Below are positions 26,698-56,306 of a stretch of 64,000 bases of DNA, one piece after another. How positions within the stretch are numbered: position 1 is the first letter of the stretch; every line of letters starts with the position of its first letter. Origin of the DNA: Porphyridium purpureum (lineage: Eukaryota); NCBI GenBank assembly GCA_008690995.1, contig VRMN01000001.1, positions 434,001 to 498,000 on the forward strand. Direction: 5' to 3'. Position numbers and translations under genes: made by a program. The notes beneath the pieces are model-generated. The model searched no databases, had not been told where the DNA came from, and saw only the letters and a list, made by a program, of their open reading frames with translations.

Positions 26698-28290
26698 ATG
26701 GCTGTGCAAGCGTTTGTTCCGAGTTGGGGCTGCGCTGCGCCACGCAGCGCGCATTGGGACTACGTGCCGATCGCGTCGTCGCCAAGTCGTCCGTTTTCCT
26801 GGTTTCGATCGCACGTGAGAAGAAGGAGTTCGACCGGTACGCGAACCCACGCGGTTACGCGAGCGGATTCAGAGGCCGCGCAGGGTCGTGCAGTAGGCCA
26901 AAAGCCAATGCCTACGCAGGTGTCGCTGTGGGAAACGCTGCAGGCTCTACAGCGTAACGCCGGCGTCGCAGGCTTTGCAGTCGACGAGCTACGTGCAAAG
27001 TATGGCGATGTGTTCCGGGTAGATCTGGGCGTTTTCAAGCCCGTCATTTTGTGCGGTCACGATTCGCTGAGGCTCATGGCCAATGCACCAGACTCAGAGC
27101 TCTCCTTCGGCGCAAATATGGTACCTGCGCTCCAAATTGTCATGGAGCCAAAGGACTATGCCGCCACGGTGTTCCCCTTCATGGACTATCCTCTTGACCC
27201 GACTCTAATGCCGAATTTCGAGAAGATGCTGGTGGAAGCCTTTCGCAAAACAAACCACCTGACCAAGTACCGCGAACGCTCACAGACAGCGATCCGGCGT
27301 GAGCTGGCTCGCCTGGCTGAGGACAACTTTGCTGAGACCGATTTCGTCGAGGTGTGCTCACGGGTGCTGTTCGCGTCGTCAACGACGATTCTGCTCGGTG
27401 ATCGCTTCGCGTCCGCGTATGGCTATCAGCTCTGGCGCGATTATTTCGAGCTCGAGGCTCTGGCGAAAGGACCGGGGTACCAGCTCATGCCGAACGCGCC
27501 CTGGAACGCCAAGGTACAAATCGTGCGTCGCAAGGCACGTCGAGCCATCCAAGACGAAATCGAAAGGCGCATCGCACGCAGCTTGAAACCCACCTTGGAT
27601 GAAACCGATGACTATTTAGACATCATCCTGTACATGATGGACGATGTGACGATTGGTTCACGAAAAGTCGGTGCGATCGTGGACCAGATCATGTCAATTT
27701 TCCTGGCGATGCACATTACGACGGTTACTTCAGCCTCGTGGACGACGGTTCGGCTGGCTCAGGATCCTGGCGCAATCAAAACAATTCGCGATGAGCTGGC
27801 AAGCCTTGACCTGACGCAGCTTGCGTCCTTCCTTCCGGGCGCGATGCGAACACTGGACGCATACTGGAACGAAACCATGCGCATCGCAACAATCGGCCCC
27901 TTGCCCCGCTGGGCGATGAAAGACATCGAATTTCAAGGGGTTCGAATCCCAGCGAAAAGCACTGTGGTGCACTACATGAATACTACGCATTTGGATCCCA
28001 CGATCTACCCGGACCCGCTGCTCTTTGACCCGAATCGATTCCTCGACCCGCAAGTGACCAAAGAGCTGACCCGAAGCGCCAAGTTTTGGAAGTTCGGTGT
28101 CGGCGCTCACACATGCACGGGCAGTCGGCTGGGGGAAATGGTACTCAAATTGTTCTGGACCGAGCTTTTGTCTACGTACGAAATCTCAACGTCAATGACC
28201 GCTGCGCAGCTTCTCGACTTTGTTCCCTCGAAGTTTGGAGCAGAAATGCCCAAGGAGACCATGCGCGTCAAAATTATTCCACGCACGTGA
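26698..28290 (+). CDS. cytochrome P450 with putative plastid transit peptide
   Basis: Heme motif FGVGAHTCTG, ExxR (ETMR), PNRF, I-helix FLAMHITT; N-terminus MAVQAFV plus Ser/Arg-rich segment. Confidence 0.93.
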   Translation: MAVQAFVPSWGCAAPRSAHWDYVPIASSPSRPFSWFRSHVRRRSSTGTRTHAVTRADSEAAQGRAVGQKPMPTQVSLWETLQALQRNAGVAGFAVDELRAKYGDVFRVDLGVFKPVILCGHDSLRLMANAPDSELSFGANMVPALQIVMEPKDYAATVFPFMDYPLDPTLMPNFEKMLVEAFRKTNHLTKYRERSQTAIRRELARLAEDNFAETDFVEVCSRVLFASSTTILLGDRFASAYGYQLWRDYFELEALAKGPGYQLMPNAPWNAKVQIVRRKARRAIQDEIERRIARSLKPTLDETDDYLDIILYMMDDVTIGSRKVGAIVDQIMSIFLAMHITTVTSASWTTVRLAQDPGAIKTIRDELASLDLTQLASFLPGAMRTLDAYWNETMRIATIGPLPRWAMKDIEFQGVRIPAKSTVVHYMNTTHLDPTIYPDPLLFDPNRFLDPQVTKELTRSAKFWKFGVGAHTCTGSRLGEMVLKLFWTELLSTYEISTSMTAAQLLDFVPSKFGAEMPKETMRVKIIPRT

Positions 28291-28643
28291 AGCTAGTGCG
28301 ATCGACCGTGAGCCGTTTCATCTGCAGAGTTGCGACGGAAAAGTAATAAAGTGACGACGGTCAAAAAGCTTCATACCCCGCGTGCTAGCTATACAAGCAG
28401 GACACTTCGCGAGAAAGTTGTATCTGTGTTCTGCTCAAGGACTTTACAATGCAGAATTTCGTGTGACCAGACAAGCGATCGCTCCAAGTCTCAAGTTTGC
28501 AGTACTCTCCGTACAAAAAGTATGCGAAGACGTCATCTGGTCGAGTAATGTTCAATAAAACACATTCATGAGCATGCTCGAGCACAGCCCGATTGAAGCT
28601 AAATCAGGACAACAAGGCAGGAAGCGCTCATGTGCTGCGACCC

Positions 28644-29900
28644 TCACTCGAAGTATGGAGACGCCAAATTCGCCACATACTCACCAATTGCGGGAGATGC
28701 GGTGAGGCCTGGACTATCGATACCAAGAACATTGATGAACCCACGAAGACCCTTTGAAGACTCGTCCTGAATGACCCAATCGCGGAAACCGCTGGTCGAG
28801 CTTTGAAGCTTGGGGTGGATTGCAGCGCTATCCGGATCGAGCTGCTCCCTTTTTAGTGTTGGTAAAAACGGAGAGCACTTTTCGAAAAATACATCTGCAA
28901 GCGACTCGTCGACGCTTAGGTCGAACGCATTACTGCCAATGTATGCGTCTCTGGCATCCGGCGCGTTCCAGTCAATACTCAGCTTCCTCTCATCAAGCCA
29001 TTGAGCGTACGGACCCAACCGCATTCCGCCAAAACAGTCTGGAGTGGTGTGAATCCCCAAGCATCCTGGGGATGGCGGGGGGTACACGAGCATTTTGGGG
29101 AAGTCTTCAGGCTTTGCCCGCCATTTGAACCAGCACGACTTGTTCGCGTGCAGTCGGTACTGCGACAGAGCTACATCAATTCCGGCCAGCGCGGCCACGC
29201 GCGCTGCACCGATACCGGCGCAGTTGATCACAACGCTGCTGTGCACGCTGGAAGTGTCCATTCGTTTCAATGTCCGTCCGCGCAGGTCAACATTTGTCAC
29301 AGATACCTCAAATCCGGCACTGCCACTACCCGTGCCTCCATGAAGCGATCGTGGCGCCGCCTCAATGCCATCCACTTCCGCATTGAGCACCACGTCGGCG
29401 TGGGCATTGCGCAGCTTTCGGTCGAAGAATTCCAGTAGCTCATGCGAATCCACCACGCCCGAGTCGGGGCAAAAGATAGCAGCAGATGCGGTGGTATTTG
29501 GTTCCATACTTTCGACCTGCTTCCGTGTGTCGACCCATCGAATTCCTGGCACACCACACGCCTCGGCGTTCTCAAACAGCCGCCTCAAATGCGGTACATC
29601 CTGGTCCTGCGGGGCAACAATCAGTTTCCCGAGCTTTTTGCACGGTATATCCTGTTCCTTGCAGAGCATGTACATGCTCCGATTCCCAGCGATGCACAGT
29701 CTGCTCTTGAGCGAGCCCGGCGCATAGTAAACCCCAGAATGAACTACCTCAGAGCTGCGTCCGCTTGTCTCCCAGCCCAGGCGGGTATGTCGCTCAACTA
29801 GCACGATGCCGCGCCGTGCAATTGCCGCGCGCGAAGCGCATGCTGCTGCGACAGATAGCCCGATCACGCCTCCTCCAATTACCACAACGCCAACATTCAT
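28644..29900 (-). CDS. L-2-hydroxyglutarate dehydrogenase/LhgO-like FAD oxidoreductase
   Basis: VVVIGGGVIG, ETSGRSSEVVHSGVYY.PGSLKSRLC, GKLIVA, GIDSPGLTASPAIG. Confidence 0.88.
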   Translation of the reverse strand: MNVGVVVIGGGVIGLSVAAACASRAAIARRGIVLVERHTRLGWETSGRSSEVVHSGVYYAPGSLKSRLCIAGNRSMYMLCKEQDIPCKKLGKLIVAPQDQDVPHLRRLFENAEACGVPGIRWVDTRKQVESMEPNTTASAAIFCPDSGVVDSHELLEFFDRKLRNAHADVVLNAEVDGIEAAPRSLHGGTGSGSAGFEVSVTNVDLRGRTLKRMDTSSVHSSVVINCAGIGAARVAALAGIDVALSQYRLHANKSCWFKWRAKPEDFPKMLVYPPPSPGCLGIHTTPDCFGGMRLGPYAQWLDERKLSIDWNAPDARDAYIGSNAFDLSVDESLADVFFEKCSPFLPTLKREQLDPDSAAIHPKLQSSTSGFRDWVIQDESSKGLRGFINVLGIDSPGLTASPAIGEYVANLASPYFE

Positions 29901-30116
29901 CCTTCCGCCTGCGTCCCTCTTCACCTGGGTAAAATCGCTCAAGTATTCGGCACGCTCGACTTGTTTGTTCGGCCAAGGGACGCACGACTCGCAAGGTGTT
30001 GGGTGTGCCTTGTGCGCGAGTGCGTTGCTGCTCGCTACTGTGCGCGCGCGGTGCAAGCATACTCTTGGGGTGCGCTTGCGCAAGGAACGCAGATGGGCGG
30101 CACAGTGCACACGCAG

Positions 30117-33100
30117 ATGCCGTGTTCGGCGTTTGTCGTCGTGAGCGCGACGGGACGATGGTTGGAGCCGCCGGCCATCACAGGCGCGCACACGGGGGTC
30201 GTGAGACACTGTGGTGGGTATCGGTATGCAGCAACTGGTGGTGCAACACGACAGAGACGCAATGCCCGGGTGTTTTCGGTAAGGATGGGTATCACGCAAA
30301 AGCCGCCGGACGAGGAGATTCGCCGTTATACAGGTGAATGGGGCAAAGGATCCGCAGAACCGTGGTGGGTGCGGCGGGAGAAGAAACGCGAGTACATGCT
30401 AGCGCGCCGCAGGAAGAAGCCTGTGGATTATTACAAGAATGCATACAGGCAGGAGTTTCGACGCCATAGACGGCCATTTGAAGGTAGCCACGAGCAGGAG
30501 ATGGCCGAGGAAGCCGACCCGGTGATTATTGAGCGTTTCAGGCGTCGCGTATTATCTTACCTTCTTCAGAACGGCCCGACCTTGGCTTCAGAGCTTGCAG
30601 ACGCATGTGCTCAACCTCGTACGCTTCCAGATCTTACCGCTTGGATTGTTGAAAACCAGGATTTGTTTCAGCTCAGTGAGTCTAGTCCGAGCGACGCTGC
30701 TCAGGATGATCCTTTGGTGTCGTTAGTGCCCGGAGCGGAAAAGTCAGATCGTGCACTGGAAGTGCTCATTCGGTCTCGACTTGGACCGGCGCAGGATCCA
30801 GAAGCATGTCAGCTTTTTCTCATCCGTACTGCCTCTGCAGCACAGAAGGCGGCGCGCGTGCTGGGCTCAAAACGCATCGTAGGCGTGTATGCTCACACGT
30901 CTGGAAAGATAAACAAGGTGCAAATGATTGCGATCACATGCCCACGCGCGGCATCCGCAAGCGACGATGCATATCCGCTTGGACACTGTTACCTCTTCGA
31001 CTTTTCGGCAACGCGCGAGGAAAAAGATGCAGTCGCACTGCGCGAGGCTGTATTTTCTGTGCTAGAGGCTGGTCGGATTACTAAAGTGATGCTCGACGCG
31101 CAAGATACGAGAAACGCCGTGCAGAAGCATCTGAAAATCCAAGTGCGAAATGATATTGATCTTCGTGTTGTGTACAGTTTACTCTTGCGCGAGCAACGCA
31201 AGGAAGGAGCCGAGTGGCAAGGGTGGGACGGGATGATGTCCCATTGGGAATCGACAATGGTAGGAAAGTATGGCTTCTTATCTGAATCTTTCCCTTTCCG
31301 GTCGAATGCCTCAAAATTAAGCCTGTTTGACCAGGTATCACTATGCTTGAACAATAGCAAGTACCTCGTCCGGCTTCTTCATCTTCTCTTTCGCAGTGCC
31401 GAGTTGCAAAAGACCAAGGCTCTTTGGCGCGGCGCCTTTTCGGCCACCAGCGCATACCACAGATCTGCACGTGAAGTAGAGGAAAGCAGCCGGCAAGAAT
31501 CACGAGCGAGAAGCTCAATTGGCGCATCGGGTACCGACACACAAGTCGCAGTCGTGCGGATCTTAAGCACGGACGGGGCAATGGAGAATGGAGAAGAAGA
31601 ATGGCTGCAAGACGAGCTCGCTCTCAGCCGAATGCTGAATGAGCGTGAGGGAATAACGCCGGATGAGCATCACAAATTGATGAAAGGGAGTGTATTGTAC
31701 TCAAGACTCACAGAAGACATTTTTATTCGTTCTCGGGAGATCGGTAACACATGCGTTCGCGCTCTTGTGATAGGAGCTTCAGATGAAAGCCGAAACCTGT
31801 ACATGATGGCACTGGCTTCATGGTATGGCAAAGAGCAGTCACAATCTGTGATTGTCGTTGACAGCTTTGGTGATTTTGACGCTGACATTGTTCGTGGCTT
31901 TGCTTACCATGTTCAATTTCCGAATGCATCTGGAAGCGGAAGCGTGAGATCTTACTTGCATGAGTTGATGGTGCTTGTGCAGCACACACGTGCAACTGTG
32001 GTTCTGCTTAATCGGGTTTCTTGCTTTTTAGCGAACATGGATGATCGGGATGCGCTGAAAGACTTTTTCGACTTTGCCAGGAAGGCGGGTGTCTCTGTCA
32101 TCGCAACGCCTGGAAGCTTTTCCAGACACGAGATCATGTCGAGTGAAGTCTTGTCACGGCACTTGATGGTGCACAGTGATGATCAAAATGCCTGGACTGC
32201 CACAATCGAGCTGCCTAGTGAGCTAGGCAAAGTGATAATTCACCGACATCGCAACGCAGAAAACGGGGATGCGGAGGTACGCTGGTTAGCTCGTGCCTTT
32301 AATGGCAAAGTCTTGGTGCTTTCAAGTCATCAGAGTTCAAAGAGAAATGAGCACCAAGGAACAAGGAAATCTGAAACCAAGCGTACGGATCAAATGGATG
32401 ACTTGGTCGCTCGACAGTCAGTGCCGCCGCTGCTCGCAAAGATTTATGCTCTTCTAGATGGCGATTTGGAGCCGCGCGCCTTCTCGAAGCAAGCTTTGGA
32501 GCGCAGACTCGTGCTTGAAGATGAATTCATGTACATGCAAGCCCAGCGCGCGCTTCGCCAGTCCGAAGCTGATGGAACTTTCGAAGTACCTCTCGAGGAT
32601 ATGATGGACCCCGATGCTGAGACTCCCTTGTTTGTTCCTCTAGAAGACGTGGAAGAGTCAAAGGGAGATGATCTTTTGTTCGAGGATGCTGCTGGGTCAC
32701 CGGTTGCAGCAGCATCATTTTCTCGCGCAATCGACCCGCAGCGCTTCTTTGAAGAGGACAGACGGGAGGCTGAGGAAGAAGAGCAGCAGCTGGCGCGAAA
32801 GGCTGGGGTGACGGCTGCAGACTTTTATCGCGCGTCGGAAGATGAGACCCGGGATGATGAAGGACTGCGTGAAGGCCTTCATGACGGCGATGAAAGTGAC
32901 GAAGAGAGGTTCTTTGACTCAAGTCGGCGGAAGGAAGATAGGAATTGGTTGAATTTCATGGGGATTAATGTTTTGTCGTCATCGATCAAAGCCACGAGTC
33001 GAAAACCCTCGGCAGAGAAGAACGACACAGACGATTCGGACAACAATCTAGCTGCGTTCCGCAGGTTGTCAGACGCAGGTGATGCACCATCGAGTGCGCA

Positions 33101-34172
33101 GCAGGAAAGGACGCAAAATGAGGCCAAGCCGGGCTCCAAAGGCGTGCAGGAGTACGTGCAAATGCACACCTACACCGACAAGCTGGAGGAAGCGTCAATG
33201 CAAGCATCTAGAGCGCTTGCCAGCGAAAGCTTCTCGGCGAGCGAGCGAGCGGCATCGAACTCTGAGGGCCCCTTACCGCGAATGCCAATCAGCTTTAGTG
33301 ATTTGCCGAGCGTGAATGTGGACATGTTCCTCGACGAAGAGGCCAGGGAATCAAGCTTGGGCGACGGGCGCTCGCCAGAAGTTCCCGGAGCGCTCGGCAA
33401 AGAGTCGAATCGCGAAGAGCTGGAGGGAATTGCACTAAGCGAGGGTCCTCAGCTTTTTGGCATGGATACGAACGACGGTACACTGGAGCTATCCCGTCGT
33501 TTGAAGCGTGAAGCTGAGATCATTCTTCAGCCAGAGGAGAATGATGATTTCTCGACTCCAGCACCTGGTTTTATCCAAGAACTCTTGGGAGAGGACGAGA
33601 ATGATGACGAGGCTGACGAAGACACGAGCAGAATGGAATTTGAGCGCTTCGAAAGAAATAACTTGGGGCGTGCGCGCCGGCTATCTTCACAAGATGAAGA
33701 AGACGATGGCGAGGACTGGGACGACTTTGACATTGCCTTTGCAGATCAAACGGATGCTAGGAACACCGCTGTTAGATCAGAGCTCCTTTCTACTGACCCT
33801 GACCCCTTTGAAGACAGCGAGCTGGAAATGATCATGGCGAATGCCGAAGGCTTTAGTCTCGACGACCAGGTAGACGATGGCAGCGATAGCGACTATGAGG
33901 ACGATTTCAGATCATTCGTGGGAGAAAATAAGAGTGCCCTGACTCTGGACCAGTTGAGACAGGCCGAGGTGAGGAACTCAAAGTCGAGCACTAGAAACCT
34001 TCGATCACCAGCGGATGATGCCGGCGATGAACGTAATGACTCTGATCAGGTCGGGCAGCAACGGGATTCAGAGGAAGGAGAAAGTCCCAACCCACCAGTT
34101 AGCAAAAAGACGCTCCGTAATCGTATGCGGCGAAGCCGAGGACCTATGTACAGACGCTGGGATTCCAAGTAG
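30117..34172 (+). CDS. large putative plastid protein: degenerate DnaQ-like 3'-5' exonuclease, degenerate Ycf45/SpoIIIAA-like P-loop domain and acidic tail
   Basis: MPCSAFVV transit-like start; CYLFDF...VLEAGRITKVMLDAQD...DIDLRV exonuclease pattern; ALVIG...SVIVVDS...GVSVIAT Ycf45-like pattern. Confidence 0.7.
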   Translation: MPCSAFVVVSATGRWLEPPAITGAHTGVVRHCGGYRYAATGGATRQRRNARVFSVRMGITQKPPDEEIRRYTGEWGKGSAEPWWVRREKKREYMLARRRKKPVDYYKNAYRQEFRRHRRPFEGSHEQEMAEEADPVIIERFRRRVLSYLLQNGPTLASELADACAQPRTLPDLTAWIVENQDLFQLSESSPSDAAQDDPLVSLVPGAEKSDRALEVLIRSRLGPAQDPEACQLFLIRTASAAQKAARVLGSKRIVGVYAHTSGKINKVQMIAITCPRAASASDDAYPLGHCYLFDFSATREEKDAVALREAVFSVLEAGRITKVMLDAQDTRNAVQKHLKIQVRNDIDLRVVYSLLLREQRKEGAEWQGWDGMMSHWESTMVGKYGFLSESFPFRSNASKLSLFDQVSLCLNNSKYLVRLLHLLFRSAELQKTKALWRGAFSATSAYHRSAREVEESSRQESRARSSIGASGTDTQVAVVRILSTDGAMENGEEEWLQDELALSRMLNEREGITPDEHHKLMKGSVLYSRLTEDIFIRSREIGNTCVRALVIGASDESRNLYMMALASWYGKEQSQSVIVVDSFGDFDADIVRGFAYHVQFPNASGSGSVRSYLHELMVLVQHTRATVVLLNRVSCFLANMDDRDALKDFFDFARKAGVSVIATPGSFSRHEIMSSEVLSRHLMVHSDDQNAWTATIELPSELGKVIIHRHRNAENGDAEVRWLARAFNGKVLVLSSHQSSKRNEHQGTRKSETKRTDQMDDLVARQSVPPLLAKIYALLDGDLEPRAFSKQALERRLVLEDEFMYMQAQRALRQSEADGTFEVPLEDMMDPDAETPLFVPLEDVEESKGDDLLFEDAAGSPVAAASFSRAIDPQRFFEEDRREAEEEEQQLARKAGVTAADFYRASEDETRDDEGLREGLHDGDESDEERFFDSSRRKEDRNWLNFMGINVLSSSIKATSRKPSAEKNDTDDSDNNLAAFRRLSDAGDAPSSAQQERTQNEAKPGSKGVQEYVQMHTYTDKLEEASMQASRALASESFSASERAASNSEGPLPRMPISFSDLPSVNVDMFLDEEARESSLGDGRSPEVPGALGKESNREELEGIALSEGPQLFGMDTNDGTLELSRRLKREAEIILQPEENDDFSTPAPGFIQELLGEDENDDEADEDTSRMEFERFERNNLGRARRLSSQDEEDDGEDWDDFDIAFADQTDARNTAVRSELLSTDPDPFEDSELEMIMANAEGFSLDDQVDDGSDSDYEDDFRSFVGENKSALTLDQLRQAEVRNSKSSTRNLRSPADDAGDERNDSDQVGQQRDSEEGESPNPPVSKKTLRNRMRRSRGPMYRRWDSK

Positions 34173-34303
34173 AACAAGCGAGCAAGGAAAAGGGAAAGCA
34201 TGTGAGAGAGTGCCGCCGAAGGTCCGTTTGCGAAGTCGCGTCGGATCCGTCCATCAGGGCAGCCCCAAAAACCAATCCCGTTCACCCACACGCCTGTGAG
34301 GAT

Positions 34304-36949
34304 CTAGCGCACGCGGATAAGCGTCAGCCCATCACGGATTGGAAGAAGTACAGAGTCCGTCCGCGAATCGTTTCTCACGTACACGTTAAAGTCATGGAGT
34401 GCGGCCGCAATTTTTTGTGCTTGATGAACTGATCGCGATCGACGCAAGTGGAGCGCATCCTTCACGCTCATCGAAGCTGCCGAGGAGGAAGTCCTGGACG
34501 ATTGCATCTCCTTCGACTCCTCACCGTATTGTTTCACCAGACCGCGAAACAATGTATTGTCCGCCGCGATCCAGCCACCGCTTTTGACGAGCTTCTTATC
34601 CAGCAGGAGGTCGTAGTAAGCCTTGTACTGCTTTTTGTTTGCATCCATATAAACAAGGTCAAACGATTTTGACTCAGACGCGAGCTGCGCTAGTGCGTCC
34701 TCACAATTTGTGACCATAAGCGTAATTTTGTCCTTGTGCGTCGACTGCTGGAAGAAGGAAGCAGCAGTGCTCGCCACCTCTTCATCGCGCTCAACGGTGA
34801 CTACCATTCCTTGTCCATTCGGCACGGCACTCGCTAGACACAACGTTCCGTAGCCAGTGAACGTACCAAGCTCGAGGACGGATGAAGCACCGATCATCCG
34901 CACAACACTATGCAAGTACTGCCCCTGCAAACTGCCGCTCATCATGTGCGTTCGCGATGCGAATGCACGCGATACGTGCGCCTGCATCGCGCTGAGCAGG
35001 TCTGTTTCTAGATCCTGCTGCTTGCTTACTTTCTGCGCGTATTCGGTGTCCCTTTCCAATTCAGCACCGGAATGTGACATGGACGCCATTCCATTATCAC
35101 CATCGCCTTCCGCCACAATGCTAGATGCGAGTGGAAACCTTGCCTTCGCTGCAGACACGCTCGTACGGCACGCCTCGGAACAGCAGCCTTGCATGCGCGC
35201 TGCGCAGTCCGGACACTGCACAAAAAGGCGCTTGTTGAATGGCCGATTGCACGATACATTTGCGCAATCCGTCTGCGTGTCACACTGCACTCCACATGTG
35301 TCACATTTCGCCAGCACATCGGCGCTCAATCGCTCGCCAATGCGCAAATCAAACACAAAATTTACGCCCTTAAACATGCTCTCGTATCCCGGATTCTCGC
35401 GAAGCATGCGTGAGTAACTCACAATGCCGCCTTTTAGGCGCTTCACGTTGGTGAAGCCCATCTTCTGTTCTAAATAAGCACCAACCTTTACGCAGCGAAT
35501 TCCTCCGGTGCAGTAGGTCAGGATAGGAGCATTCTTGTCCGTGTCCTTCAGCTGCGTTTCCAACCATTGCCAAGTGTCCCGAAACGTGTCTGTGTCCAAC
35601 GCAATCGCTCCTTCAAAGAGGCCCACTTCGCTTTCGTACCTGTTGCGGCAATCCAGAACCATGGCAGGCTCGGATCCGTTCTGCCTCGCCACGAGCGCAC
35701 GGTGCCAGTCCTGAGCCTCAATTTCGGTGCCATTGTGTTCCTTCCAGTCAATTTGCTCGATGATGGCGTCGTCCAAACCATCCTGCAGCACTTTTTCGCG
35801 CGTCTTAATGCGCAGGTCTTGGAATGCAGACTCGCTATACGATACCCGAGTGTCCTTATTCAAGAAGACACCACGAATTTCGTGGGGCATGGCGTAGTAC
35901 TCAAAGGCCTCTGCAGTGGCTTGGTCAGCTTCGCCCGCGCACTGAACCCCTTCCACGCCCATGTCGCGGACAAACTCGGCCAAATTCACCACGGGTACAC
36001 AAAACTGCGCGTTGATTCCTTCGCGCGCTACGTAGATACGTCCTTTCACACCGTAGAAAGACCAGACCATGCGAATTTGTCGCACAAGCTCCTCTGGGTC
36101 GCGAACATCCACAAAGCGATAAAATGAGATAGTTTGCACTTGGTGCTCCGGGTGCAAGGCGTCATGCTGCGCACGCGCAGCCAAGTCGAGAAAGTATTGC
36201 GGTACTGATGGCGGGGATGGCGCTTTGAGCTCCTCCAGGGGCTCCAGTACAATGCCGACGTTGCTCCCGGGCGTTCCAAGCTGCTCCGGTGGGACCGACG
36301 AGAACACTTGTTCCAGCAACTGCTCGTACGTCTCAATGGGAGGTTGTCCCTCCGAGGCGCGAATACTGAAGGAGTGGTCGTCACGCAAGACGCACCCGTA
36401 GTGCGGATCGGACGAGAGAGATGGAAATAACGTCAGTAGCTCCTCCCTGATGCGAGTGCGGAAGCTTTCCAAGGACGCACATTCTTGGTGGAGCAAAAAC
36501 ACACGCGTCCGCTTGACGCGGGTTCCAAATATACCCCACCCGCCACCTTGCTTCATGCGCGGATCCTTCAAGTAGTCGCGCGCGTCGTGCAGACCTATGC
36601 GGTATGGCATCGCGACGCGAATGCCGATCAAGCGGCCGGCTGCGCGCAATGCGTCCAGCTGCTGCTTCCTCTGCAAATTCGCCTCATGCATCACCCGCTG
36701 CCTCTGCCTCCGCAGCTGCTTCGGCGTTAATCTCAGCTCATCCGCCTCGCTTTCCCGCGAGCCGCGCGACCGCGCATGCCCTTCATTCAGCACACACCGC
36801 ACCACATTCGTGCTCACACACACCCCACGCCACCGCACCACGCGCGCGCGCGTGACCTCCCGAATCGCATCACATCGCCACCATTCACGCGCGCACGCCG
36901 CGCGCGCCCCGATTCCCTGCACGCCTCCACCTCCCACTCCCACAAACAT
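34304..36949 (-). CDS. fusion of TrhO/YceA (UPF0176 rhodanese-like tRNA U34 hydroxylase) and CCoAOMT/TrmR-family O-methyltransferase
   Basis: SFYRF, GRIYVAREGINAQ, LDCRNRYESEVGLFEGA, YCTGGIRC, LKGGI..Y, FKGVNFVFD.R and Cys-rich tail; then LELGTFTGYG, FDLVYMDANK, ADNTLFRG, LPIRDGL in the same frame. Confidence 0.9.
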   Translation of the reverse strand: MFVGVGGGGVQGIGARAACAREWWRCDAIREVTRARVVRWRGVCVSTNVVRCVLNEGHARSRGSRESEADELRLTPKQLRRQRQRVMHEANLQRKQQLDALRAAGRLIGIRVAMPYRIGLHDARDYLKDPRMKQGGGWGIFGTRVKRTRVFLLHQECASLESFRTRIREELLTLFPSLSSDPHYGCVLRDDHSFSIRASEGQPPIETYEQLLEQVFSSVPPEQLGTPGSNVGIVLEPLEELKAPSPPSVPQYFLDLAARAQHDALHPEHQVQTISFYRFVDVRDPEELVRQIRMVWSFYGVKGRIYVAREGINAQFCVPVVNLAEFVRDMGVEGVQCAGEADQATAEAFEYYAMPHEIRGVFLNKDTRVSYSESAFQDLRIKTREKVLQDGLDDAIIEQIDWKEHNGTEIEAQDWHRALVARQNGSEPAMVLDCRNRYESEVGLFEGAIALDTDTFRDTWQWLETQLKDTDKNAPILTYCTGGIRCVKVGAYLEQKMGFTNVKRLKGGIVSYSRMLRENPGYESMFKGVNFVFDLRIGERLSADVLAKCDTCGVQCDTQTDCANVSCNRPFNKRLFVQCPDCAARMQGCCSEACRTSVSAAKARFPLASSIVAEGDGDNGMASMSHSGAELERDTEYAQKVSKQQDLETDLLSAMQAHVSRAFASRTHMMSGSLQGQYLHSVVRMIGASSVLELGTFTGYGTLCLASAVPNGQGMVVTVERDEEVASTAASFFQQSTHKDKITLMVTNCEDALAQLASESKSFDLVYMDANKKQYKAYYDLLLDKKLVKSGGWIAADNTLFRGLVKQYGEESKEMQSSRTSSSAASMSVKDALHLRRSRSVHQAQKIAAALHDFNVYVRNDSRTDSVLLPIRDGLTLIRVR

Positions 36950-38082
36950 CTCCCACTCCCACCTTCCTTCCCCCTTGCCTGTTCTCTGCTCCCGACCTTC
37001 CGCCGCCGCTACCGCGCACACAAACTGTTTTTTTTTTTTTTTTCTGAACCGGTTTCAAACTGTACTCTAGTGTACACCAAATGCATATCAAGTTCCCCAT
37101 TTTCTCTTATCGTACTTCTAGGGTTCCTCCGTTAAAAATTCGTGGAGAATGATGGGTCGGTTAACGGTTAACACGTAGTCGTTAAGCCGTTAAACTGGTA
37201 ACTGATAAAGGGTGTGGCTCGAGAACAGGAAAACGCCGCGCTGCGCGTGTCGGCCGGCGACACGAGCCATCGGATAAAAAGTTTCTGTTTGGCTTAGAAG
37301 CTGCGCGCGAAACTGGGCGCAGAGCGCGACCGCGGCGGTTGTCGGTACGGAGTGCCAGTTGGAATGGTTCTACGTTTAGAACTTGATCAACTCGTTGGAT
37401 CGGGTGTTTGCAATTGGCGAAGCGAGGTTTCCCAGAATTCCACACATGACGATCACACAGCACAAACTGTACCTTTGCTGTACTCATTTCATTGTTAATT
37501 ATGTGTTTTAAATAATATGAAAGTTGTAATAAAAAAGATCTTATTTAATATTCATATTTTAATCTCGTGCGACGCGAGCGAGCTTTTGTGCGGGGCCTGC
37601 TTCGAGCGCAGTGTGGGGTGTGGCATGCTGTGCGTCCGTGTGTCGAAGCGAGTCGTGGCGGGTTGCGTGTGCCGGCGGTCTGCATGCTGCCGTGGCACGG
37701 TGATCGCGTGTCGCCAAGCTGGCTTGGAAGGTCATTGCACGCGCTTCCATTCTTTTCAAAGTGTCGAGAGAAAAAGGGAAAAGACCTCTGAATCTCGCGT
37801 TCTCGGCGCCGCCGCGCGACGAAGAACGACAGCGCTCGGTAACGTGCGCGAGTCGGTGTGTCCTATCGATCAGGGCTGCAGCGAATCCGAAATCACGCGC
37901 TGCGTGACACGTGCGCGTGCCAGATTTCGTGGGCACAAACACTGCCAAACTTCAGCGGGAAAAAGTTCGCCTCCAAGCCGCGACGAGGTGGCTGTCTTAT
38001 CGGCAAGCATTGTGCGGTTGGACCCGGGAGATACAAGCAAGACGTGAGGCAGAGAGACGAAACGAGAGAGGGTGAGTTTACA

Positions 38083-39807
38083 ATGAAGAAGGTGGTTTCA
38101 TATAATGACGTGACGGCATTCACGGCGGAGCCGCGGTCGGCAGGAGATGTGGGAGGCGCGGCAGACAGCGCGGTGGAAGGCAAAGTCGGTTTCGCTGGTA
38201 CGTTGCCAAGGCCAAAGCCGGTAGGTGTAGTTGGGATGGACGGTTGGGCGCTGGCCGAATCCGGTGGTGATGGTCGTCGCGCGGCAGATGGGTCAGACTC
38301 CGCGCGATCGGACGCGTTGGAACAGATCGTGAGCCCGCCGGTGCAAGTGAAGAACCAGATTGAAGCGCAAATGCGCGTGCAGCTGCATGACTTTTCACTG
38401 AGCGATCCCGCCACCGCCGCGAGCGCCGCTATCGGGTCGGTCGCAGTCACGGCGACGAACGGATTGAGCGCGGCGGAGCAGGCGATGCAGAGTATGGCAG
38501 CGTTTTCGACAAGAAAAGTGGTGGTCGTCATGGTGGGGCTGCCAGCCAGGGGCAAGACACACACGGCCAAGTCACTAGAGCGCTACTTGAACTGGCTCGG
38601 CTTCATGACCAAGGTCTTTAATGTCGGCGCGTTGAGACGGGAATTGGTGGGCGCCGAGCAAAAGGCGGACTTTTTTGATCCGCACAATGCTGAAGGCGCT
38701 GCGGCGCGAAAACGAGTCGCGGCACTTACACTAGAGCGAATGATCGAGTGGCTGCTAGCGGACAGTGGCGGGCGTGTGGGAATTTACGACGCCACGAACA
38801 CCACACGCGAACGGCGCAAGGCTGTGCGGATTCGGCTCGAAACGGAAAACATTCGCGTGTTATTTTTCGAAAGCATGTGCACTGACGAGGCCATCGTGAA
38901 CCGCAATATTTTGCAGACCAAACTCTTCAGCCCAGACTACGCACACGCGTCTGCCGAAGACGCCGTGGCCGACTTTAAGCGTCGTATTGCGCATTATGAG
39001 GAAGTATATGAGACGCTAGACGCTGACGAGGACTGTGCATACATCAAGAGCGTGAACGTGTCTTCACAACTGATCCTCAACGATATCCAGGGTTACTTAC
39101 CGGGAAAGATCGCAGCGTTCCTGCTCTCTGCGAACATTTCGCCACGATGCTTGTACCTGTCAAGACATGGCGAGTCCGAGTGGAATCGTTCCGGTCAGCT
39201 TGGTGGTGACCCGCCGCTCACCACTCGTGGTCGCATCTACTCCATACGCCTTGCTGAGTTTATGGCGTCCGAGTTCACAAACAAGGGCAAAGATCTGCCC
39301 CTGGTGTGGACGTCGCAGCTCCAACGGACACGCCAAACGGCTTCGAGCATACCCGGGATGACCATCTGCTGGCGGGCGCTGAACGAGATTGACGCGGGAA
39401 TGTGCGAAGGAATGACATACAAACAAATTGAACAAACGCGACCGGATATTCACGAAGCGCGCAAGCGCGACAAGCTGCGCTTCCGCTATCCTGGAGGCGA
39501 GAGCTATGTAGATGTGATTCACCGGCTCGAACCAGTCATTCTCGAGATTGAGCGTACGCAGGAGCCGCTTCTTATCGTCGCACACAACGCCATCATCCGG
39601 TCGATCTTTGCTTATTATTATGGCATTGAGCAAAGCAAGGTGCCACACATTGACATTGATCTACACACTGTTTATAAGCTCACAACGCAAGCGTATGGTT
39701 GCAAGCTTGAGAAGTTTTCATTTGACGTTGACGGCAGTGAATACAACAACAAAACACCGGAAGCGTCTCCGAGAGCCGCGTCCGTACCCAGCCCTGTCAT
39801 ATTGTGA
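38083..39807 (+). CDS. 6-phosphofructo-2-kinase/fructose-2,6-bisphosphatase
   Basis: MVGLPARGKT, FNVG..RR, DATNTTRERR, LSRHGES, LNEIDAG, RYPGGESY. Confidence 0.96.
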   Translation: MKKVVSYNDVTAFTAEPRSAGDVGGAADSAVEGKVGFAGTLPRPKPVGVVGMDGWALAESGGDGRRAADGSDSARSDALEQIVSPPVQVKNQIEAQMRVQLHDFSLSDPATAASAAIGSVAVTATNGLSAAEQAMQSMAAFSTRKVVVVMVGLPARGKTHTAKSLERYLNWLGFMTKVFNVGALRRELVGAEQKADFFDPHNAEGAAARKRVAALTLERMIEWLLADSGGRVGIYDATNTTRERRKAVRIRLETENIRVLFFESMCTDEAIVNRNILQTKLFSPDYAHASAEDAVADFKRRIAHYEEVYETLDADEDCAYIKSVNVSSQLILNDIQGYLPGKIAAFLLSANISPRCLYLSRHGESEWNRSGQLGGDPPLTTRGRIYSIRLAEFMASEFTNKGKDLPLVWTSQLQRTRQTASSIPGMTICWRALNEIDAGMCEGMTYKQIEQTRPDIHEARKRDKLRFRYPGGESYVDVIHRLEPVILEIERTQEPLLIVAHNAIIRSIFAYYYGIEQSKVPHIDIDLHTVYKLTTQAYGCKLEKFSFDVDGSEYNNKTPEASPRAASVPSPVIL

Positions 39808-39852
39808 TGACTGAACACAGAGCTCTTGCTAAATCGAACATTTTATCCATGT

Positions 39853-39869
39853 AGAGAGAGAGGGAGGGA

Positions 39870-39900
<31 letters not shown>

Positions 39901-39914
39901 GGCGAGAGAGAGAG
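39853..39914. repeat. (GA)n-rich microsatellite
   Basis: Direct reading; similar GA/CT tracts at ~3040-3070, 17395-17413, 22629-22660 and 23017-23045. Confidence 0.8.
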
Positions 39915-40100
39915 CGAGTCGGCGTGGACATGGGAGCTCATCACAGTCAGGTTTGGCCAAATTAGGAATTCGCCGCGTTCGCCGAACCTGGCGTACCTTG
40001 ATACAGGTGGCGTAGAGCAATCTGTTCCGCCGATAGGGCAAGGAATCGAACCTTGTTCCTTTTACGTCAAAACGCTCACAGGATGAAATCCACCTGGACC

Positions 40101-43100
40101 CTACGCTGGAGGCTGCTTCGGAGCAGAATCCGGAGCGTGCGTCGATGCCAAGCCACTATCAGGCGTAGTTCCTTCTGCTGCGGAGGCATCCAGTCCATGT
40201 GCACGCACTGCCTCGGCTTCGGCTTTTGCGCTGTGCTCCATTTCCTGCTGCCTGGCAAGCTCCGCCTCGGCGTCGGCGATGGGTTGCGCTAGCGCCGCAA
40301 CCTCTTCCTCAGCAGTTTCCCGCAACAAGCGCGCATGCTGGTTCACCCACTCAACATCTGGAGTCGTGTTGAACTTTTCAGAATTGAGCTGGAGCAATCT
40401 GAAATCCGCCAGAAACTCGGCAGCGGACGAATACTTGAAATTCTTGCAGTTCTGACGGATCAGATTGAGGTACATTTGATCCTGCACATGTTCGCCATAG
40501 TTAGGTACGAGCTTGGTATTAACAGGCTGCGTCAAGTCGAGCCCAGTCCCCTTTGGACGCGCGAGATTCTTGGGATCCGCGTGGACTGGAGGAATTTCGT
40601 CGGGCCGCAATCTCTTGATCAGAAATGGCGTTGTGCTTGCAATATACCCCTTTGTTTCACGTACAACACGTTCCACACCTTCCAGGATGCCGTTCAGTTC
40701 AACGCGGGCGTCGCGTCGTGCGCGACGTGATGAAATCTGCTTGACGAGCGGCGCGTTTGCACCAGCCCCTGTGCCAGTAGCAGCGTAGCTGAAACCGGGT
40801 GACGACCGTTTGCGCGGCCCATTTAGATCAGACTCGTCCGCGTACTGCGATCGCCGCCGCTTCAGAGCGGCAGCGTCCTTTGAATTGGCGAGATTCTTTG
40901 TGTCAATGCGGATCTTACCGGAACCTCCTCCCGAGCCCAATTTGATTTTCACGCGTCCGTCTCCACCACCCGCGCCTCCTTCATCACCACTGCCGCTTTG
41001 GCCTGGCAAGCGAGGCGTGCCAACGTGAGCAGGCGGTGACGCCCTGATGTCGGTTCTACTCTTGGACTTTGTCAATGCGCCTAGACCTATGCTGACCTTG
41101 AGAGATGGGGCCTTTGTCAACGCGTTCTCGCCCGCAGTCGAGGCTTTCGTAGCTCCAGCTCCACCTGTACTGTCCGTAGCGCCGATTTGTGCAACGCCCT
41201 TTGCTTTGGCCTCCTTGCGCTGCTTCTGTGCAAGGATCTTCTCGATTTCTTTCTCGTCCGTTACATACTCGTACTTCTTCTCCTTCCGATTTCCGTGCTC
41301 ATCCTTGATCCACCGCACCACTTTCAGTCCTGTCATGGGCGCACCGCCAATGAGTACAGTCTTCTCCTTATCCTTCGGCTTCTTCTCCTTGCGGCTAACT
41401 TTCTTCTTGATCCCGGGTGCCGGCGACCCAGGACCGCCCGGAGTACCACCATCAGATCCTGAGGGCGCTCCCGCGCCAGCTCCAGCCCCTGCGGCCGAGC
41501 GCGCTCGTTGTTCGGCCAGCATCTTAAAAAGTTCCTCGGCATCTTCTTTGTCCCCTCCAGAGTGCTGCGCTTTGCGAACAAGCGAAATCTTGACACCGCC
41601 AGGCCCGCCGCCGGTGCCCTTGACTTTCACTTCATGCCCGCCGACGATCGTAGTGACAGGCTGGGGCGGCTGCGAAGCAGACACGCCAAACGCAGATTCC
41701 GGTGAGGTTTGCGCAAGCAAAAGTGCAGCAGCACGCGCGTCTGCAGCAGCCTGGTCTTCTGCGGCAGGCAGGCCGCTCACGTCGCCCATGAGAAGCGCAC
41801 GTAACTGCGTCTTCAAAGGGACGTACTGTGCAATGGCTGCGGACAGATCTGCAGGTTGCTGGTCTTGTGCTGCACCCGCTGACGCTGCTGCCGCTGCTGC
41901 CGCAGCGGCAGCGACGCTGGGAGCAGCAAGCGACCGTTGTTCCTGCTTCGTCAGCACACTCGCGATTGCAGAAGCAAAATCCTTGTCAAAGCCGAACGAG
42001 TTGTTGTTTTGCACACCTCCCGCTGTACCTGAAGACGACCCTCCAGTTGTGCCGGAGCTCCCGCGATGATGACCCGCGGACGAAGCCACTACATTCGAGG
42101 CGCGTTTAATGCACAGATCACGCAGCAACGCTCTGCGCGCATCTATGCCAGCGGGCATTTTCTTCGCCGACACGCGAAAGAACGACTGGAGCAGCGTCAG
42201 CAGCTCGGGCGCAGCCAAATTGTTAATGCGCGCCTCAACAGACAGGCCATTCCGTGAGAGCACAAAACCTGAGCACAACTCCATTGCATGTCGGGTGAGA
42301 GCAAGCTCGCGAGCAAGCTCCTTGCGCTGCGCTCGCTGCGCACTGATCATAAGCGATGTCCGGTACCACTGAGTGCTCAGCAGCTGCTGACGTATAAACT
42401 CACCCACTGCCACACCTGCCGCCAGGCCTGTCTTGGCGGCGGCCTGCATAATGTTGCCTTGCGCTGTCGGATGCGTAAAGATGCGGATACCTGCTCGATT
42501 TAGTGTCTCCCATCCGGCTTCCATAGCCTCAAAGGCAGCGGTCTCTTCCGGAGTAACCGTACGCAGCAATTCGGCCTCCAAAGTGCTCAGCCCGCGAGCT
42601 GGTTCGTTGAGCTGGTACAAGCCGCCATCAAAGATGGTCAACTCCTTGAGCGTCTTGAGCAAGAAAGTATCTGAGCAGCTGCGCTTGCGGCCAAACGCCT
42701 CAAACACGTGGTTCTTCCGCAAAGCGGGCGTCACCACACCCTTCTTCTTCTGATTAGAAAACTGCCGGAGCATCCACAGCAGCACCCGCTCTTTGGTGTA
42801 CTTTTTGCACCGGTCTGTATTCGGGGCCATAACTTCGACGCGCGGCTCGCACTGACCCACTGAGAGTACCATGTCGATCTCACGTACATACATGACGTCT
42901 TGCTTCTTCACGACTAAGAAGTCGCAATGGCTCACCTCGATCGGATTCCCCTCGTGCACCTTGTCTTGACTCCGGCTCAGGCTCTGATTCGGGCCGCCCG
43001 GCAATGAGCAAAGTGCGGCCGGCGCCGCAAAGAGTGAGGACTCGAGAGCCTGAATCTCGTGCATCGGCGGGTCCGTATGGTCGCGCGTGTGTCCGGCCAT

Positions 43101-46100
43101 TCTGGCCGCGGCTGCGGATGAGCGCGCCACATTCTTAGCATTACTATTCGTACCAACACTCGCTCCCCCATGGTGCGCACCGTGCGCGTGACCACTGGGA
43201 GCGTACTTGACGTCGCCAGTATGAAAAGGGGGCAAGTCATCTGGCCCTAATGTGATTACATGGCGATGGTGATCGGGATTGCTGTTGGCATGTGGATAGC
43301 TGCTGGTGCTTCCGCCAATGCCTTCCGCCGCGACTGCGCCTCCAGAATGAAACGCAGAGCGCTTCCGCACGTACGTCACGTAGCGAGAGGCCATACCCGG
43401 CAGCATAATGAGCGGCGGCGTGCGTTCAAGCGCGTACTCGGTGAGTACAATCCGGTGAGAGTCTTTGGCGGCGCAACTCAAGTCTGACTTGCGCTTGAAA
43501 GCGCCTGCACCAGTGCCAGGCAAGCCGTTTCCGGCGGCTACGCCGCCCGCAAGGTGCGTTGTTGCCGGCGTCGCAAAGGCGTCATTACGGTCATTGCCAA
43601 TTCCACTGATCCCGTTTCTATCTGTGGCGGCTGTGGCCGTGCGAGAGGTTTTGACGCGCTTCCTCCGCAGCGGCTGGAGCCCGAACGAACGACCTAAAAG
43701 GTCGCCTGTATCGTGCGGTCTAGAGCCCACAGGCGATAGCTCTGGGCGGTGAAAGCTCGTGAGGTAAGAATCTGACACGTGAGCATGAGATGTAAGAGCC
43801 TTTGTAGCAGGAGCCGCGTGAACAAGCGCGCTCAGCACGCTGCGCCGCGCGCCGCCCTTCCTAAACCCACTCGACGTGGCGTGCACATAGAGCATATCAT
43901 TCGAAATGCGCTTCAACCGTTCAAGCTCTTCGTGGGCCCGATCTAGCACCACAGCATCCGAGAGCTCGACGCTTGTACGACACATCGAAGGAACGAATGG
44001 GTGCGTCGCGTGGTAACGTTGCTGCTCATGCTCATGCGTCTGGGTTCTCACCAGCTGCATTCCTCGCGGCTGATCCTGCGCCACTGCGGCCATATCACCA
44101 GCCATCAGGAGATTTGGGTCATTCAAATCTAGAACCAGCTTTGCAAGAAATGGCGCAGGCCTTTGGGATCCTTCTTTCGCAGAATATGAATCCATCATCA
44201 TTCTTGTGTTTTCCTCGTCTGACGCTGCCGCCGAGGATGATGAGGACGCCGACTCCCATAAAATCTCATCCAACCAACTGTCAGTTTCCAAATCCGAGTT
44301 TTCAGCAAAACACTGAAGCCCTAAGGAGTGCTCGACATCCTCAATGTCGCTTTTTGAGGATGCAGGGCGCTCTTTATCCTTCGTGCGTGTCCTTCCGGCC
44401 TTCTGGCCCTTCTTTGTCGACTCTGTGATTCCAATATTCTGAACCGTCGATGCGTCTTTCTCCTCCAAAATCACACCTGTGCTGGCAGAAGAAAGCACAG
44501 ATGTAGGCAAGCTGGGCGCGGTGGACGGAAGCGGGCTCGGAGTGTCATCTTCCCACACAATATCTTCGTCATCCGCTTCATCACCAGGTGAGCCCGACAC
44601 CTCTGCCTCCGCCTGCACTGGTGCTTGCTTGTTCAGCACGCTACCACCGCCACCGCGTGTTCTGTTGACGTCGCCGCTACTGTCGCAATCGCTTGCGCTA
44701 TCACCCCAAAGAATCTCGTCCTCCCAGGCGTATTGCTCTACCAAACTGTAAATACTATCATTCCGAAAAGCTTGATTTCTTGCCGCGTCCAAAACCTCGG
44801 ACTTGAGATACCTCCAATGCCAAGGCTCATCTCGATGTCGCGTTTTAGCACTAGTATCACCGATGCAATCATCCGTCGCCCCTGCCGATGTCGACGTGCC
44901 GACACGAAGGGGCCTCTCCCTTTCACTGGCCGATGATCGAGCCGACGAAAAATTATTTTGATCGACCTGGTTGGTTGTCTTGAAGGATTCCATGTTCATG
45001 TCCCTATCTGCTGATGCTAGTGCCGAGGCCGAGGCCAGGGCCGAGGCCGAAGCCGCCTTGAGGATGCGAATTTTGTCCAAGACGACCTTGCTGACGTCTG
45101 GTCGTGAAACAATCTGTGCCCTCAGAAACTGATCCGTTTCATCTCCTAACCCACTTGCACCTTCCGCGTGGTTCCGGTTCTTTCTTCTTCTTCTATGCGA
45201 CGCTTGTGCCAGTGATGACTGTGCGACGCCCGTATCCGAAGCGTGACCCGCCGCCACATCACTAACAGTCCCCTCGGTTGCGCTGCCGTTTGCCAACTCT
45301 TCAGCTGCCACCTTGCGTGGATCTTCCCACCCGTATCGCACGCGCCGTGGTTTTCTGGGTAGCAGCCTAATCTCGGGTGCGAACAGTTTACCGAATTCGG
45401 GGCGACCGGAATCCTGCGCTTCATGCTTCCGTGTGCTACTGCTTATGGTGTGCTGCAGTTGAGGCTGCATTTGCATCCCAGCATGCGCTTGTGCCACCAA
45501 TACGCCACCCAAGTCGCTCGCAGTCCGGGCGTTGACGACTCGCCTTTCTTGAGCCAGACGAGCTGGCGCCACCTCGCGTGTACCTTCCAAGTCCTGCTGC
45601 TTAGCACCTGCGGATATGTCTCCGTCGGGTTCTTGTTCATCGTAATCGTCGTCCTCGTCTTCTGCTTGATTTGCGTTCGCGCCGCCTTTTACCCACAACG
45701 GCTGGGTCAGTGCCCCGCTCGTGTTTCCCAGTGCGACCTGGACGAGCGTATCGCGCTCCTCCTTGTCCAAGTCGTCATCCAGGAACTCTGTCTCATTCGC
45801 GAAATCGACCGCGGCGTCGCCTGCGCGCACGGCGCCGCCGGCACCCTCCTCGTCGTCGTCGCTGTCCTCTTCATCGTACTCGTCGTCGTCCTCTGCGCGT
45901 CCTGCCGAGCCAACCGAGCCAGCCGCCCGTTCTGCCTGCCTATCCTGCGCCGACGCGACCTCTGCCAAGTCCTCATTTGCGCTCGCAATCGCCGGAGCCA
46001 CATTTCCAATGTGTTCCCTGGCGTCCTCATCCAAGTACTCGGCCTCCTCCAACCTACCGCGCCGATCGATATTCCCGAACAAAAACCCCGCCGCCACACC

Positions 46101-47577: not shown

Positions 47578-47957
47578 AGCCGTCAGAACTTCTGACGTTG
47601 CACGTTCGCTTCTGCGGGAAACGTGCGATGGCAATCGTAGACTGTGGCGCCACACATGTCTTTGTGGATAAGGCATGGGTGCGCCATTCAGGGTTATTAT
47701 CATTTTGCGAAGCGACACCGGGACTTCAGGCCGTCCTTGCCGACGGGCGCAAGACTAATGTTGTCGGGAGCCTTCTCGGTCATTTGGAGCTGAACGGCAT
47801 CGGGTCACGTCGCTGCCGTGCGATTGTATGTCCGGCACTGATGACCGACCTCGTCATCGGTATGGAGTTCCTGACGCGTACTGGGATGGTCATTGATTAC
47901 GAGGACGGGAGCATTTTCATGCGTAAGCGGGAAGATATGAACTTGAAAAGGGACAAG

Positions 47958-48140
47958 GAGCAGAACGGGAGCGCAGGGCGCACGAGCGGAGGAACGGCTG
48001 GGCCGGGCAGAGAGCAGAACGAGAGCGCAGGGCGCACGAGCGGAGGAACGGCTGGGCCGGGCAGAGAGCAGAACGGGAGCGCAGGGCGCACGAGCGGACG
48101 AACGGCTGGGCCGGGCAGAGAGCAGAACGGGAGCGCAGGG
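47958..48140 (+). repeat. ~3.4 x 54-bp in-frame tandem repeat (EQNGSAGRTSGGTAGPGR)
   Basis: Units start at 47958, 48012, 48066 and 48120. Confidence 0.9.
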
Positions 48141-50829: not shown

Positions 50830-51130
50830 TGTTACCAATGCTGTGCCTTTTTTTACTCTCTGCGTCTTCTTCTTACCTCTTCTGTCTCCGAGCAAGACCT
50901 GACCGGCTAGTCCGGGCAGGCGCGTCGCCTTTTTATACCCTTACTTCCGCTAGGGACAGCAAGGCGCCAAGAGAAATGACAATGCAAACCATTGGCATTT
51001 CTGCGCGCGTCTAGAAGTTTCTGGAACCTCTAGAAGCTTCTAGAAACGGTTAAACGGTCTGACGGTTTAACGGCTTACCGGTTTCGGATTAACCGAACCG
51101 TTCTAGGTGACTGGGGTCGAACGGATAACA
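50830..51130 (-). repeat. 3' LTR of gypsy element
   Basis: Identical by eye to 56001-56301. Confidence 0.95.
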
Positions 51131-55998: not shown

Positions 55999-56000
55999 AA

Positions 56001-56301: not shown

Positions 56302-56306
56302 TACGA

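Follow-up and report, generated by a model that had tools for sequence, protein, structure and literature searches.

The stretch analysed here, called the window below, comprises 64,000 nucleotides of Porphyridium purpureum DNA (assembly GCA_008690995.1, contig VRMN01000001.1, positions 434,001 to 498,000) and carries on its minus strand, at 34304-36949, a gene in which a TrhO domain set is fused to an O-methyltransferase (OMT). A sequence-only reading of the window had proposed it as a one-polypeptide synthase of 5-methoxyuridine (mo5U) at the wobble uridine, position 34 (U34), of organellar tRNA. The frame is uninterrupted, as that reading claimed, with no internal stop in 881 codons. Pfam analysis of the 881-residue protein revealed UPF0176_N at residues 272-386 (E 8e-16), Rhodanese at 423-513 (3e-12), Rhodanese_C at 527-595 (1e-13) and Methyltransf_3 at 666-879 (3e-37). 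The extent assigned to TrhO (about 36130-35165) and to the OMT (about 35045-34307), the YCTGGIRC motif and the Cys-rich tail were all found as described, while a folded domain at residues ~107-237 had been overlooked. Among named homologues, one from Porphyridium is the closest (55% across the region searched). The genes on either side are those of a eukaryotic nucleus and encode TAF1-like, RIC1 and PFK2/FBPase2 proteins as well as long terminal repeat (LTR) retrotransposon polyproteins. All features are collected in Table 1.

Table 1. Features of the fusion gene and of the LTR cluster in the window
Feature	Position	Strand	Basis
TrhO-OMT fusion gene: presequence, predicted beta-grasp domain, TrhO, O-methyltransferase	34304..36949	-	intron-free 881-codon open reading frame; RNA reads without joints
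Likely organellar presequence, ~residues 1-55 (end approximate); Phe at 2, Arg-rich, no hydrophobic stretch	36785..36949	-	sequence
Predicted ubiquitin-like (beta-grasp) domain, residues ~107-237, long helix in front	36239..36631	-	AlphaFold, Foldseek
TrhO N-terminal acylphosphatase-like domain (UPF0176_N); K382 and R384 correspond to E. coli K112 and R114	35792..36136	-	Pfam, alignment
TrhO rhodanese domain	35411..35683	-	Pfam
Active-site loop C480-T481-G482-G483-I484-R485-C486 (E. coli C200-C206)	35492..35512	-	alignment
Rhodanese_C Cys-rich tail	35165..35371	-	Pfam
Linker between TrhO and OMT domains, ~40 residues	35045..35164	-	unbroken RNA read coverage
PF01596 cation-dependent-type O-methyltransferase; SAM-binding Gly/Glu, metal triad D769, D797, N798 and K772	34307..35044	-	Pfam, alignment, model
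Basic segment, residues 835-847, net +4, at the site of TrmR tRNA-binding stretch 174-182	34409..34447	-	alignment
3' untranslated region ending at poly(A) site 33823; overlaps convergent gene 30093-34172(+)	33823..34303	-	7 poly(A) reads
Copia-type polyprotein	47628-51014	+	LTR retrotransposon cluster
Gypsy-type polyprotein	51250-54741	-	LTR retrotransposon cluster
Further LTR-cluster fragment	56333-57124	+	no Pfam match
SAM, S-adenosylmethionine.

Expression of the fusion gene

Transcription was assessed with stranded raw reads of 150 nt (run X24), of which about 20% were used and 953 were placed. Coverage of the minus strand is gap-free from about 36999 down through the linker to the stop codon. 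The sequence-only reading had proposed RNA reads across the linker as a check, and there (bins 35016-35263) the depth is 18-24, with no joints and no indels. No opposite-direction reads were placed between 34768 and 37123, and depth is zero or near zero in the intergenic interval 37000-37600; the strand of the fusion transcript is fixed, because the plus-strand genes nearby give the opposite read direction. Non-templated poly(A) was present in 7 reads at 33823, where the genome has no A run on the minus strand. Since the reads are short, a single start-to-end mRNA is deduced from the even coverage together with the open frame. The fusion gene is real, expressed and intact. That neighbouring genes were mistaken for one, or that an intron is hidden, is ruled out by the single frame, the continuous stranded reads and the absence of joints, and a separate transcript end at 35214 was discarded as too weak (5 read ends at a depth of 25).

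The reads also revealed variation at 18 positions, 15 of them in frame (6 synonymous and 9 missense), with no stop and no catalytic residue affected. Two alleles at ~50% each were observed at many positions within 28000-40400, which suggests that the culture sequenced was diploid or mixed, or belonged to another strain. As the reads of the convergent gene extend to ~34700, its mRNA and that of the fusion overlap by roughly 850-900 nt. Over this overlap (33823-34700) minus-strand depth climbs from ~19 to 60-86, possibly owing to 3' bias, strand leakage or a short extra RNA.

The TrhO half

Bacterial TrhO produces 5-hydroxyuridine at position 34 (ho5U34), which Bacillus TrmR methylates to mo5U34 (PMC6599085, PMC6158493). 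The first half of the fusion passes the cut-off of the NCBIfam TrhO equivalog NF001133 (179.5 against 170 bits) and shares with E. coli TrhO (YceA) the three-part domain layout and 35% identity over 323 columns. Mutational work identified K112, R114, C200, T201, G203 and R205 as essential in the E. coli enzyme (PMC6599085), and all six are matched in Porphyridium, by K382, R384, C480, T481, G483 and R485. Across 53 aligned fusions, C, T, G, G, R and C of the loop never vary, Arg fills the R114 site in 51 and Lys in 2, the K112 site holds R in 40, K in 12 and N in 1, and the eight Cys positions of the Rhodanese_C tail are kept in 49-50. Unlike the E. coli protein, whose product passes to CmoB, the Porphyridium protein is fused, nuclear-encoded and equipped with a putative presequence, and its product would presumably pass to the fused OMT.

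The best named bacterial matches to this half belong to Bacteroidota. A quick tree of 86 rows, the named ones including no green-plant or animal TrhO paralogues, united 49 eukaryote-type rows, diatom-cluster rows among them, in one group (support 95). This group nests within a 98-supported group containing E. coli and 19 of the 22 Bacteroidota, and the six cyanobacterial TrhOs lie far outside. The six cyanobacterial proteins score 83-91 bits, the same 19/22 Bacteroidota 180-209 and E. coli 188. A cyanobacterial (endosymbiotic) origin of the TrhO half is therefore unsupported by both bit scores and tree position. Given its Bacteroidota/E. coli-type character, the fusion gene appears to be no plain plastid-to-nucleus transfer.

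The methyltransferase half

The OMT domain is modelled with a mean confidence (predicted local distance difference test, pLDDT) of 82.6, and its Foldseek matches are enzymes resembling caffeoyl-CoA O-methyltransferase (CCoAOMT). Residue counts refer to 82 measurable of 83 fusion domains and to the 80 nearest bacterial stand-alone OMTs. The TrmR reference is the Bacillus protein from an mltG-trmR-U32-U32 operon (locus L088), with numbering mapped on 5ZW3. TrmR contacts tRNA through R86, R90, K136, R178 and R181, of which R86, R90 and R178 are specific to it, and its orthologues, at ~40% identity, are reported from Firmicutes only (Ryu et al., 2018, PMC6158493). With Bacillus subtilis TrmR (YrrM; PDB 5ZW3/5ZW4) the Porphyridium domain shares the PF01596 fold, the metal triad (D133/D159/N160 there, D769/D797/N798 here), R86 (R721) and K136 (K772); Lys takes the place of R181, and the corresponding segment is likewise basic. 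The triad is intact in 82/82 fusions. The domain differs from TrmR in lacking Arg at the R90 and R178 sites and in its identity to the syntenic Bacillus protein, which at 27.2% lies under the orthologue bar.

A basic stretch is typical of the long, mostly algal fusions, whereas most compact copies do not have one. Its 13 residues before the last helix carry a mean net charge of +3.5 in the 82 fusions against -0.4 in the 80 stand-alone OMTs, and reach at least +2 in 66/82 against 5/80, while the rest of the domain is alike in charge (-5.2 and -7.3, respectively). The six TrmR-clade proteins all lie between +1 and +3.

A quick OMT tree against TrmR, a check suggested by the sequence-only reading, gave a divided answer. 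Among its 64 rows (32 fusion domains, 21 near bacterial, 6 TrmR-clade and 5 others), the TrmR clade (support 97) excludes all fusion rows, 30 of which, Aphanomyces included, group together at support 85; a forced fusion+TrmR clade was not rejected (approximately unbiased (AU) test, p 0.47). The methyltransferase may work like TrmR, but it is no TrmR member by the published signature.

The nearest stand-alone relatives, at 36-40% identity, are found in Bacteroidota and some cyanobacteria. They share the catalytic residues of the fusions, as do the CCoAOMT-like SafC and SynOMT, but lack their long insert and basic patch and do not lie beside trhO. Bacterial OMTs also score above plant CCoAOMT by profile. 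Identity with the plant enzyme was rejected on this ground, together with the fused state of the domain and its Bacteroidota neighbours. A bacterial operon or fusion as donor was likewise discarded, as trhO lies in the fetched flanks of none of the 80 loci and a single-domain genome scan was also empty.

Some further observations concern these relatives. One Bacteroidales OMT (L005:3959-4942) has pyk on one side and rbfA on the other; in 9/80 loci (L006-L085) a tRNA-Phe(GAA) gene is close to the related OMT. Two ochrophyte-type homologues, P0081 and P0082, keep TrhO and the additional N-terminal domain, while their C-terminal part no longer scores as an O-methyltransferase, so that either the second step seems to have decayed or these proteins represent a second paralogue. 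P0081 additionally begins with a thioredoxin-like region, which may stem from the merging of two gene models.

The N-terminus and a third domain

The first 50 residues of the fusion contain 8 K/R and 3 D/E. Plastid presequences of rhodophytes bear a Phe-based motif at the extreme N-terminus (PMC7038456), and a Phe motif was present near the N-terminus in 22/30 red-algal-type homologues against 1/10 compact ones, the groups having been picked by the analyst. The Phe motif and the Arg-rich, non-hydrophobic start point to the plastid as the most likely location in Porphyridium. The protein likely enters an organelle, as the sequence-only reading had supposed, judging from this presequence-like start.

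The Porphyridium gene is of the long form, which possesses an additional domain, here at residues ~107-237. These residues match no Pfam family. They are modelled with a mean pLDDT of 81.7, and the top Foldseek matches are ubiquitin-like folds, although weak (best E 0.015, none at or below 0.001); Atlas matches have template modelling (TM) scores below 0.5 by query. On these weak matches a beta-grasp domain is predicted. TGS domains share the beta-grasp fold, and binding of tRNA or of a partner would be a guess at its role. The domain was detected in 84/149 two-domain proteins by a profile that was built from the same set and misses Vitrella, diatom and Guillardia rows, perhaps 5'-incomplete; it went undetected in four plastid-free named hosts.

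Distribution and published relatives

A domain-architecture search, also suggested by the sequence-only reading, recovered both domains in 149/329 proteins from algae and plastid-free hosts alike (83/88 first matches and 66/123 further representatives). Named hosts include Rhodosorus, Chondrus, Gracilaria, Cyanidiales, Phaeothamnion, Mallomonas, Epipyxis, a Ditylum cluster and Vitrella. Salpingoeca, Protostelium and Paulinella are represented by single transcriptome records in which contamination is possible. An Atlas cluster containing all three families has 79 members, all eukaryotic. Eukaryote-like matches that would pass as stand-alone TrhO mostly end mid-domain and look like exon fragments; they were not counted as unfused genes. 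Three very long, insertion-rich fusions (P0435, P0437 and P0445) have, as an impression from composition, an apicomplexan look; if they are apicomplexan, an apicoplast or mitochondrial role would be raised.

That the fusion might be novel, a possibility left standing by the sequence-only reading, does not hold. The architecture has been in print since 2019, when yceA (trhO) was reported to be fused to trmR in Phytophthora sojae, P. ramorum and Phaeodactylum tricornutum, this fusion being the clue by which trhO was found (Sakai et al., 2019, PMC6599085). The Porphyridium gene is a further member and in itself no discovery. The passages concerned describe no assay of a fusion and label the three hosts bacteria; the accompanying table lists one TrhO and no TrmR for Cyanidioschyzon merolae and names no red alga as fused (PMC6599085). 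A full fusion is present in the C. merolae cluster examined here. The published fusions resemble the Porphyridium gene in having both domains in a single gene and in the proposed pathway. Oomycete and diatom fusions occur in the same match set and trees, where the Porphyridium protein groups with diatom-cluster and Aphanomyces fusions, the Phytophthora and Phaeodactylum proteins themselves not being identified among the rows. The oomycete form lacks the extra beta-grasp-like domain and the long basic insert of red algae.

Genomic neighbourhood

Neighbouring reading frames encode a cytochrome P450 with a plastid-type N-terminus (26698-28290, +), a FAD-dependent oxidoreductase (28644-29900, -), PFK2/FBPase2 (38083-39807, +), a TAF1-like protein (40101-46166, -) and RIC1 (57837-62288, +), and none of these five has a link to tRNA modification. 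The convergent gene at 30093-34172(+) encodes a 1359-residue protein with a plastid-type N-terminus and an acidic C-terminal half. No Pfam family matched it at E 0.001; a stretch near residues 260-440 looks by eye like what we take to be a 3'-5' exonuclease motif. Remains of LTR retrotransposons are clustered at 47628-57124.

Candidate function and alternatives

We believe that an organellar enzyme converting U34 through ho5U to mo5U, probably in the plastid of Porphyridium, is the explanation that has somewhat better than even chances of being correct. It is the two-step synthase of the sequence-only reading, and it agrees with the view of Sakai et al. (2019); the part that did not stand is the second enzyme as a TrmR orthologue, since by signature it is TrmR-like only. 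A nuclear gene would give rise to one protein imported into an organelle, most likely the plastid, where the TrhO domain would use O2 to hydroxylate U34 at the wobble position of tRNAs for four-codon boxes, and the OMT domain would then methylate ho5U34 with SAM, both steps being performed by the fused enzyme. TrhO may hold the tRNA, so that fewer RNA contacts would be needed by the methyltransferase, and the algal basic segment and the beta-grasp domain may aid tRNA binding. The resulting mo5U would widen the decoding of Ala, Val, Thr, Ser, Pro and perhaps Leu codons.

A number of results weigh against this explanation. The signature arginines of TrmR are represented by one of three in the Porphyridium OMT, where Val725 occupies the R90 site and Gln843 the R178 site. 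Across the 82 fusions R86 occurs in 22, a basic residue at R90 in none and Arg at the R178 site in 42 (49 basic), and as the fusions are related to each other these counts are not independent; the 80 stand-alone OMTs have 1, 0 and 3 (13 basic), respectively. The basic segment averages +0.65 in 23 further, mostly compact fusions and reaches at least +2 in 6 of them. Solved small-molecule OMTs outrank TrmR by profile (top match 185 bits, 5ZW3 112), and TrmR was absent among the Foldseek matches listed for the OMT model. The fetched flanks of the 80 nearest bacterial OMT loci contain no trhO; when 50 of the genomes, many incomplete, were searched for trhO but not TrhP, it was located elsewhere in 30 and not seen in 20. 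The fusion also occurs in species that have no plastid (Aphanomyces, Plasmodiophora, Protostelium and Salpingoeca), so a plastid location is not general. According to a review, mitochondria and chloroplasts use unmodified U34 (PMC11571807), and no published assay of the activity, product or location of any eukaryotic TrhO or fusion was found in a search that largely left subscription journals uncovered.

The same search returned no paper describing TrhO structure 9J5O, and no match for mo5U with plastid and algae or for TSTD2 with hydroxyuridine. The biochemistry of human TSTD2 is stated to be wholly undescribed (PMC10135228), the relevant passages of a 2026 review treat the pathway of ho5U and its derivatives (xo5U) for bacteria alone (PMC13602947), and a Mycobacterium preprint cautions that homology to TrmR does not guarantee activity on RNA. 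Surveys of coconut and oil palm report ho5U with TrhO-like candidates (PMC10298058, PMC11954249).

It could be that the same chemistry takes place on mitochondrial tRNA, in the mitochondrion or in both organelles via alternative starts, which we hold to be unlikely for Porphyridium. The compact fusions of the four plastid-free hosts speak for it, several of their N-termini being Arg-rich, non-hydrophobic and mitochondrial-looking by eye, and so do the non-cyanobacterial TrhO half and an Arg-x-aromatic-Ser/Ala motif in 8/30 red-algal-type N-termini; for the compact form, a mitochondrial location is indeed the simplest assumption. However, the Phe motif is almost confined to the red-algal-type copies, single-signal dual targeting is predicted to be restricted to the green lineage (PMC7038456), and 13/16 long copies, a group picked by eye for that look, have signal-peptide-like hydrophobic starts fitting secondary plastids. 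Alternatively, TrhO may form ho5U34 while the OMT acts on a small catechol, phenolic or other non-tRNA substrate, the fusion merely co-delivering two organellar enzymes. This appears improbable to us, even though the nearest solved relatives are SafC, cyanobacterial SynOMT and CCoAOMT, the R90 site is never basic, the domain lies outside the TrmR clade, its nearest bacterial counterparts persist in genomes without trhO, and P0081 and P0082 no longer give an OMT score in their C-terminal part. The fusion has been retained in fixed order over several eukaryotic supergroups, the enolic hydroxyl of ho5U is of the kind methylated by the PF01596 family, to which TrmR itself belongs, and a common clade with TrmR is tolerated by the AU test. 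Moreover, the signature is loose even among syntenic TrmR-clade proteins, of which two of six have R86 and four R90, all six having R178.

A 5-methoxy-pyrimidine made on another RNA, such as organellar rRNA or cytosolic tRNA, seems very improbable. A related Parabacteroides OMT lies directly before rbfA, and rbfA occurs in the flanks of 9/80 related loci, but this link is seen in only some Bacteroidales and may reflect nothing more than synteny. The oil-palm survey places ho5U34 on tRNA-Gln(UUG) fragments (PMC11954249), so the targets in eukaryotes need not be those of bacteria. The Porphyridium protein, for its part, keeps all tRNA-binding and catalytic residues of TrhO and has a presequence-like N-terminus.

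Beyond the Porphyridium gene, the two-step synthase may be old in eukaryotes and of a single origin, with a compact mitochondrial form surviving in amoebozoans, a choanoflagellate, Rhizaria and oomycetes. The red-lineage form would have acquired the beta-grasp domain together with a basic patch like that of TrmR and been redirected to the plastid, and the methyltransferase of the synthase would have been recruited independently of Firmicute TrmR. We offer this as a tentative scenario, one that is rather more apt to fail than to hold.

Implications

Whether eukaryotes have xo5U wobble modifications at all is a question raised by Sakai et al. (2019), who took eukaryotic trhO homologues to suggest that they do (PMC6599085). 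An intron-free, expressed, single-gene red algal copy, with orthologues in the transformable C. merolae, makes this question directly testable. If mo5U is confirmed, the statement that U34 is unmodified in plastid and mitochondrial family-box decoding would change, and the numerous unannotated 'caffeoyl-CoA OMT' domains would gain an assigned substrate. Should the single-origin scenario also be true, four-codon boxes would be decoded through 5-methoxyuridine in the mitochondria of protists and in plastids of the red lineage, contrary to the unmodified U34 of textbooks.

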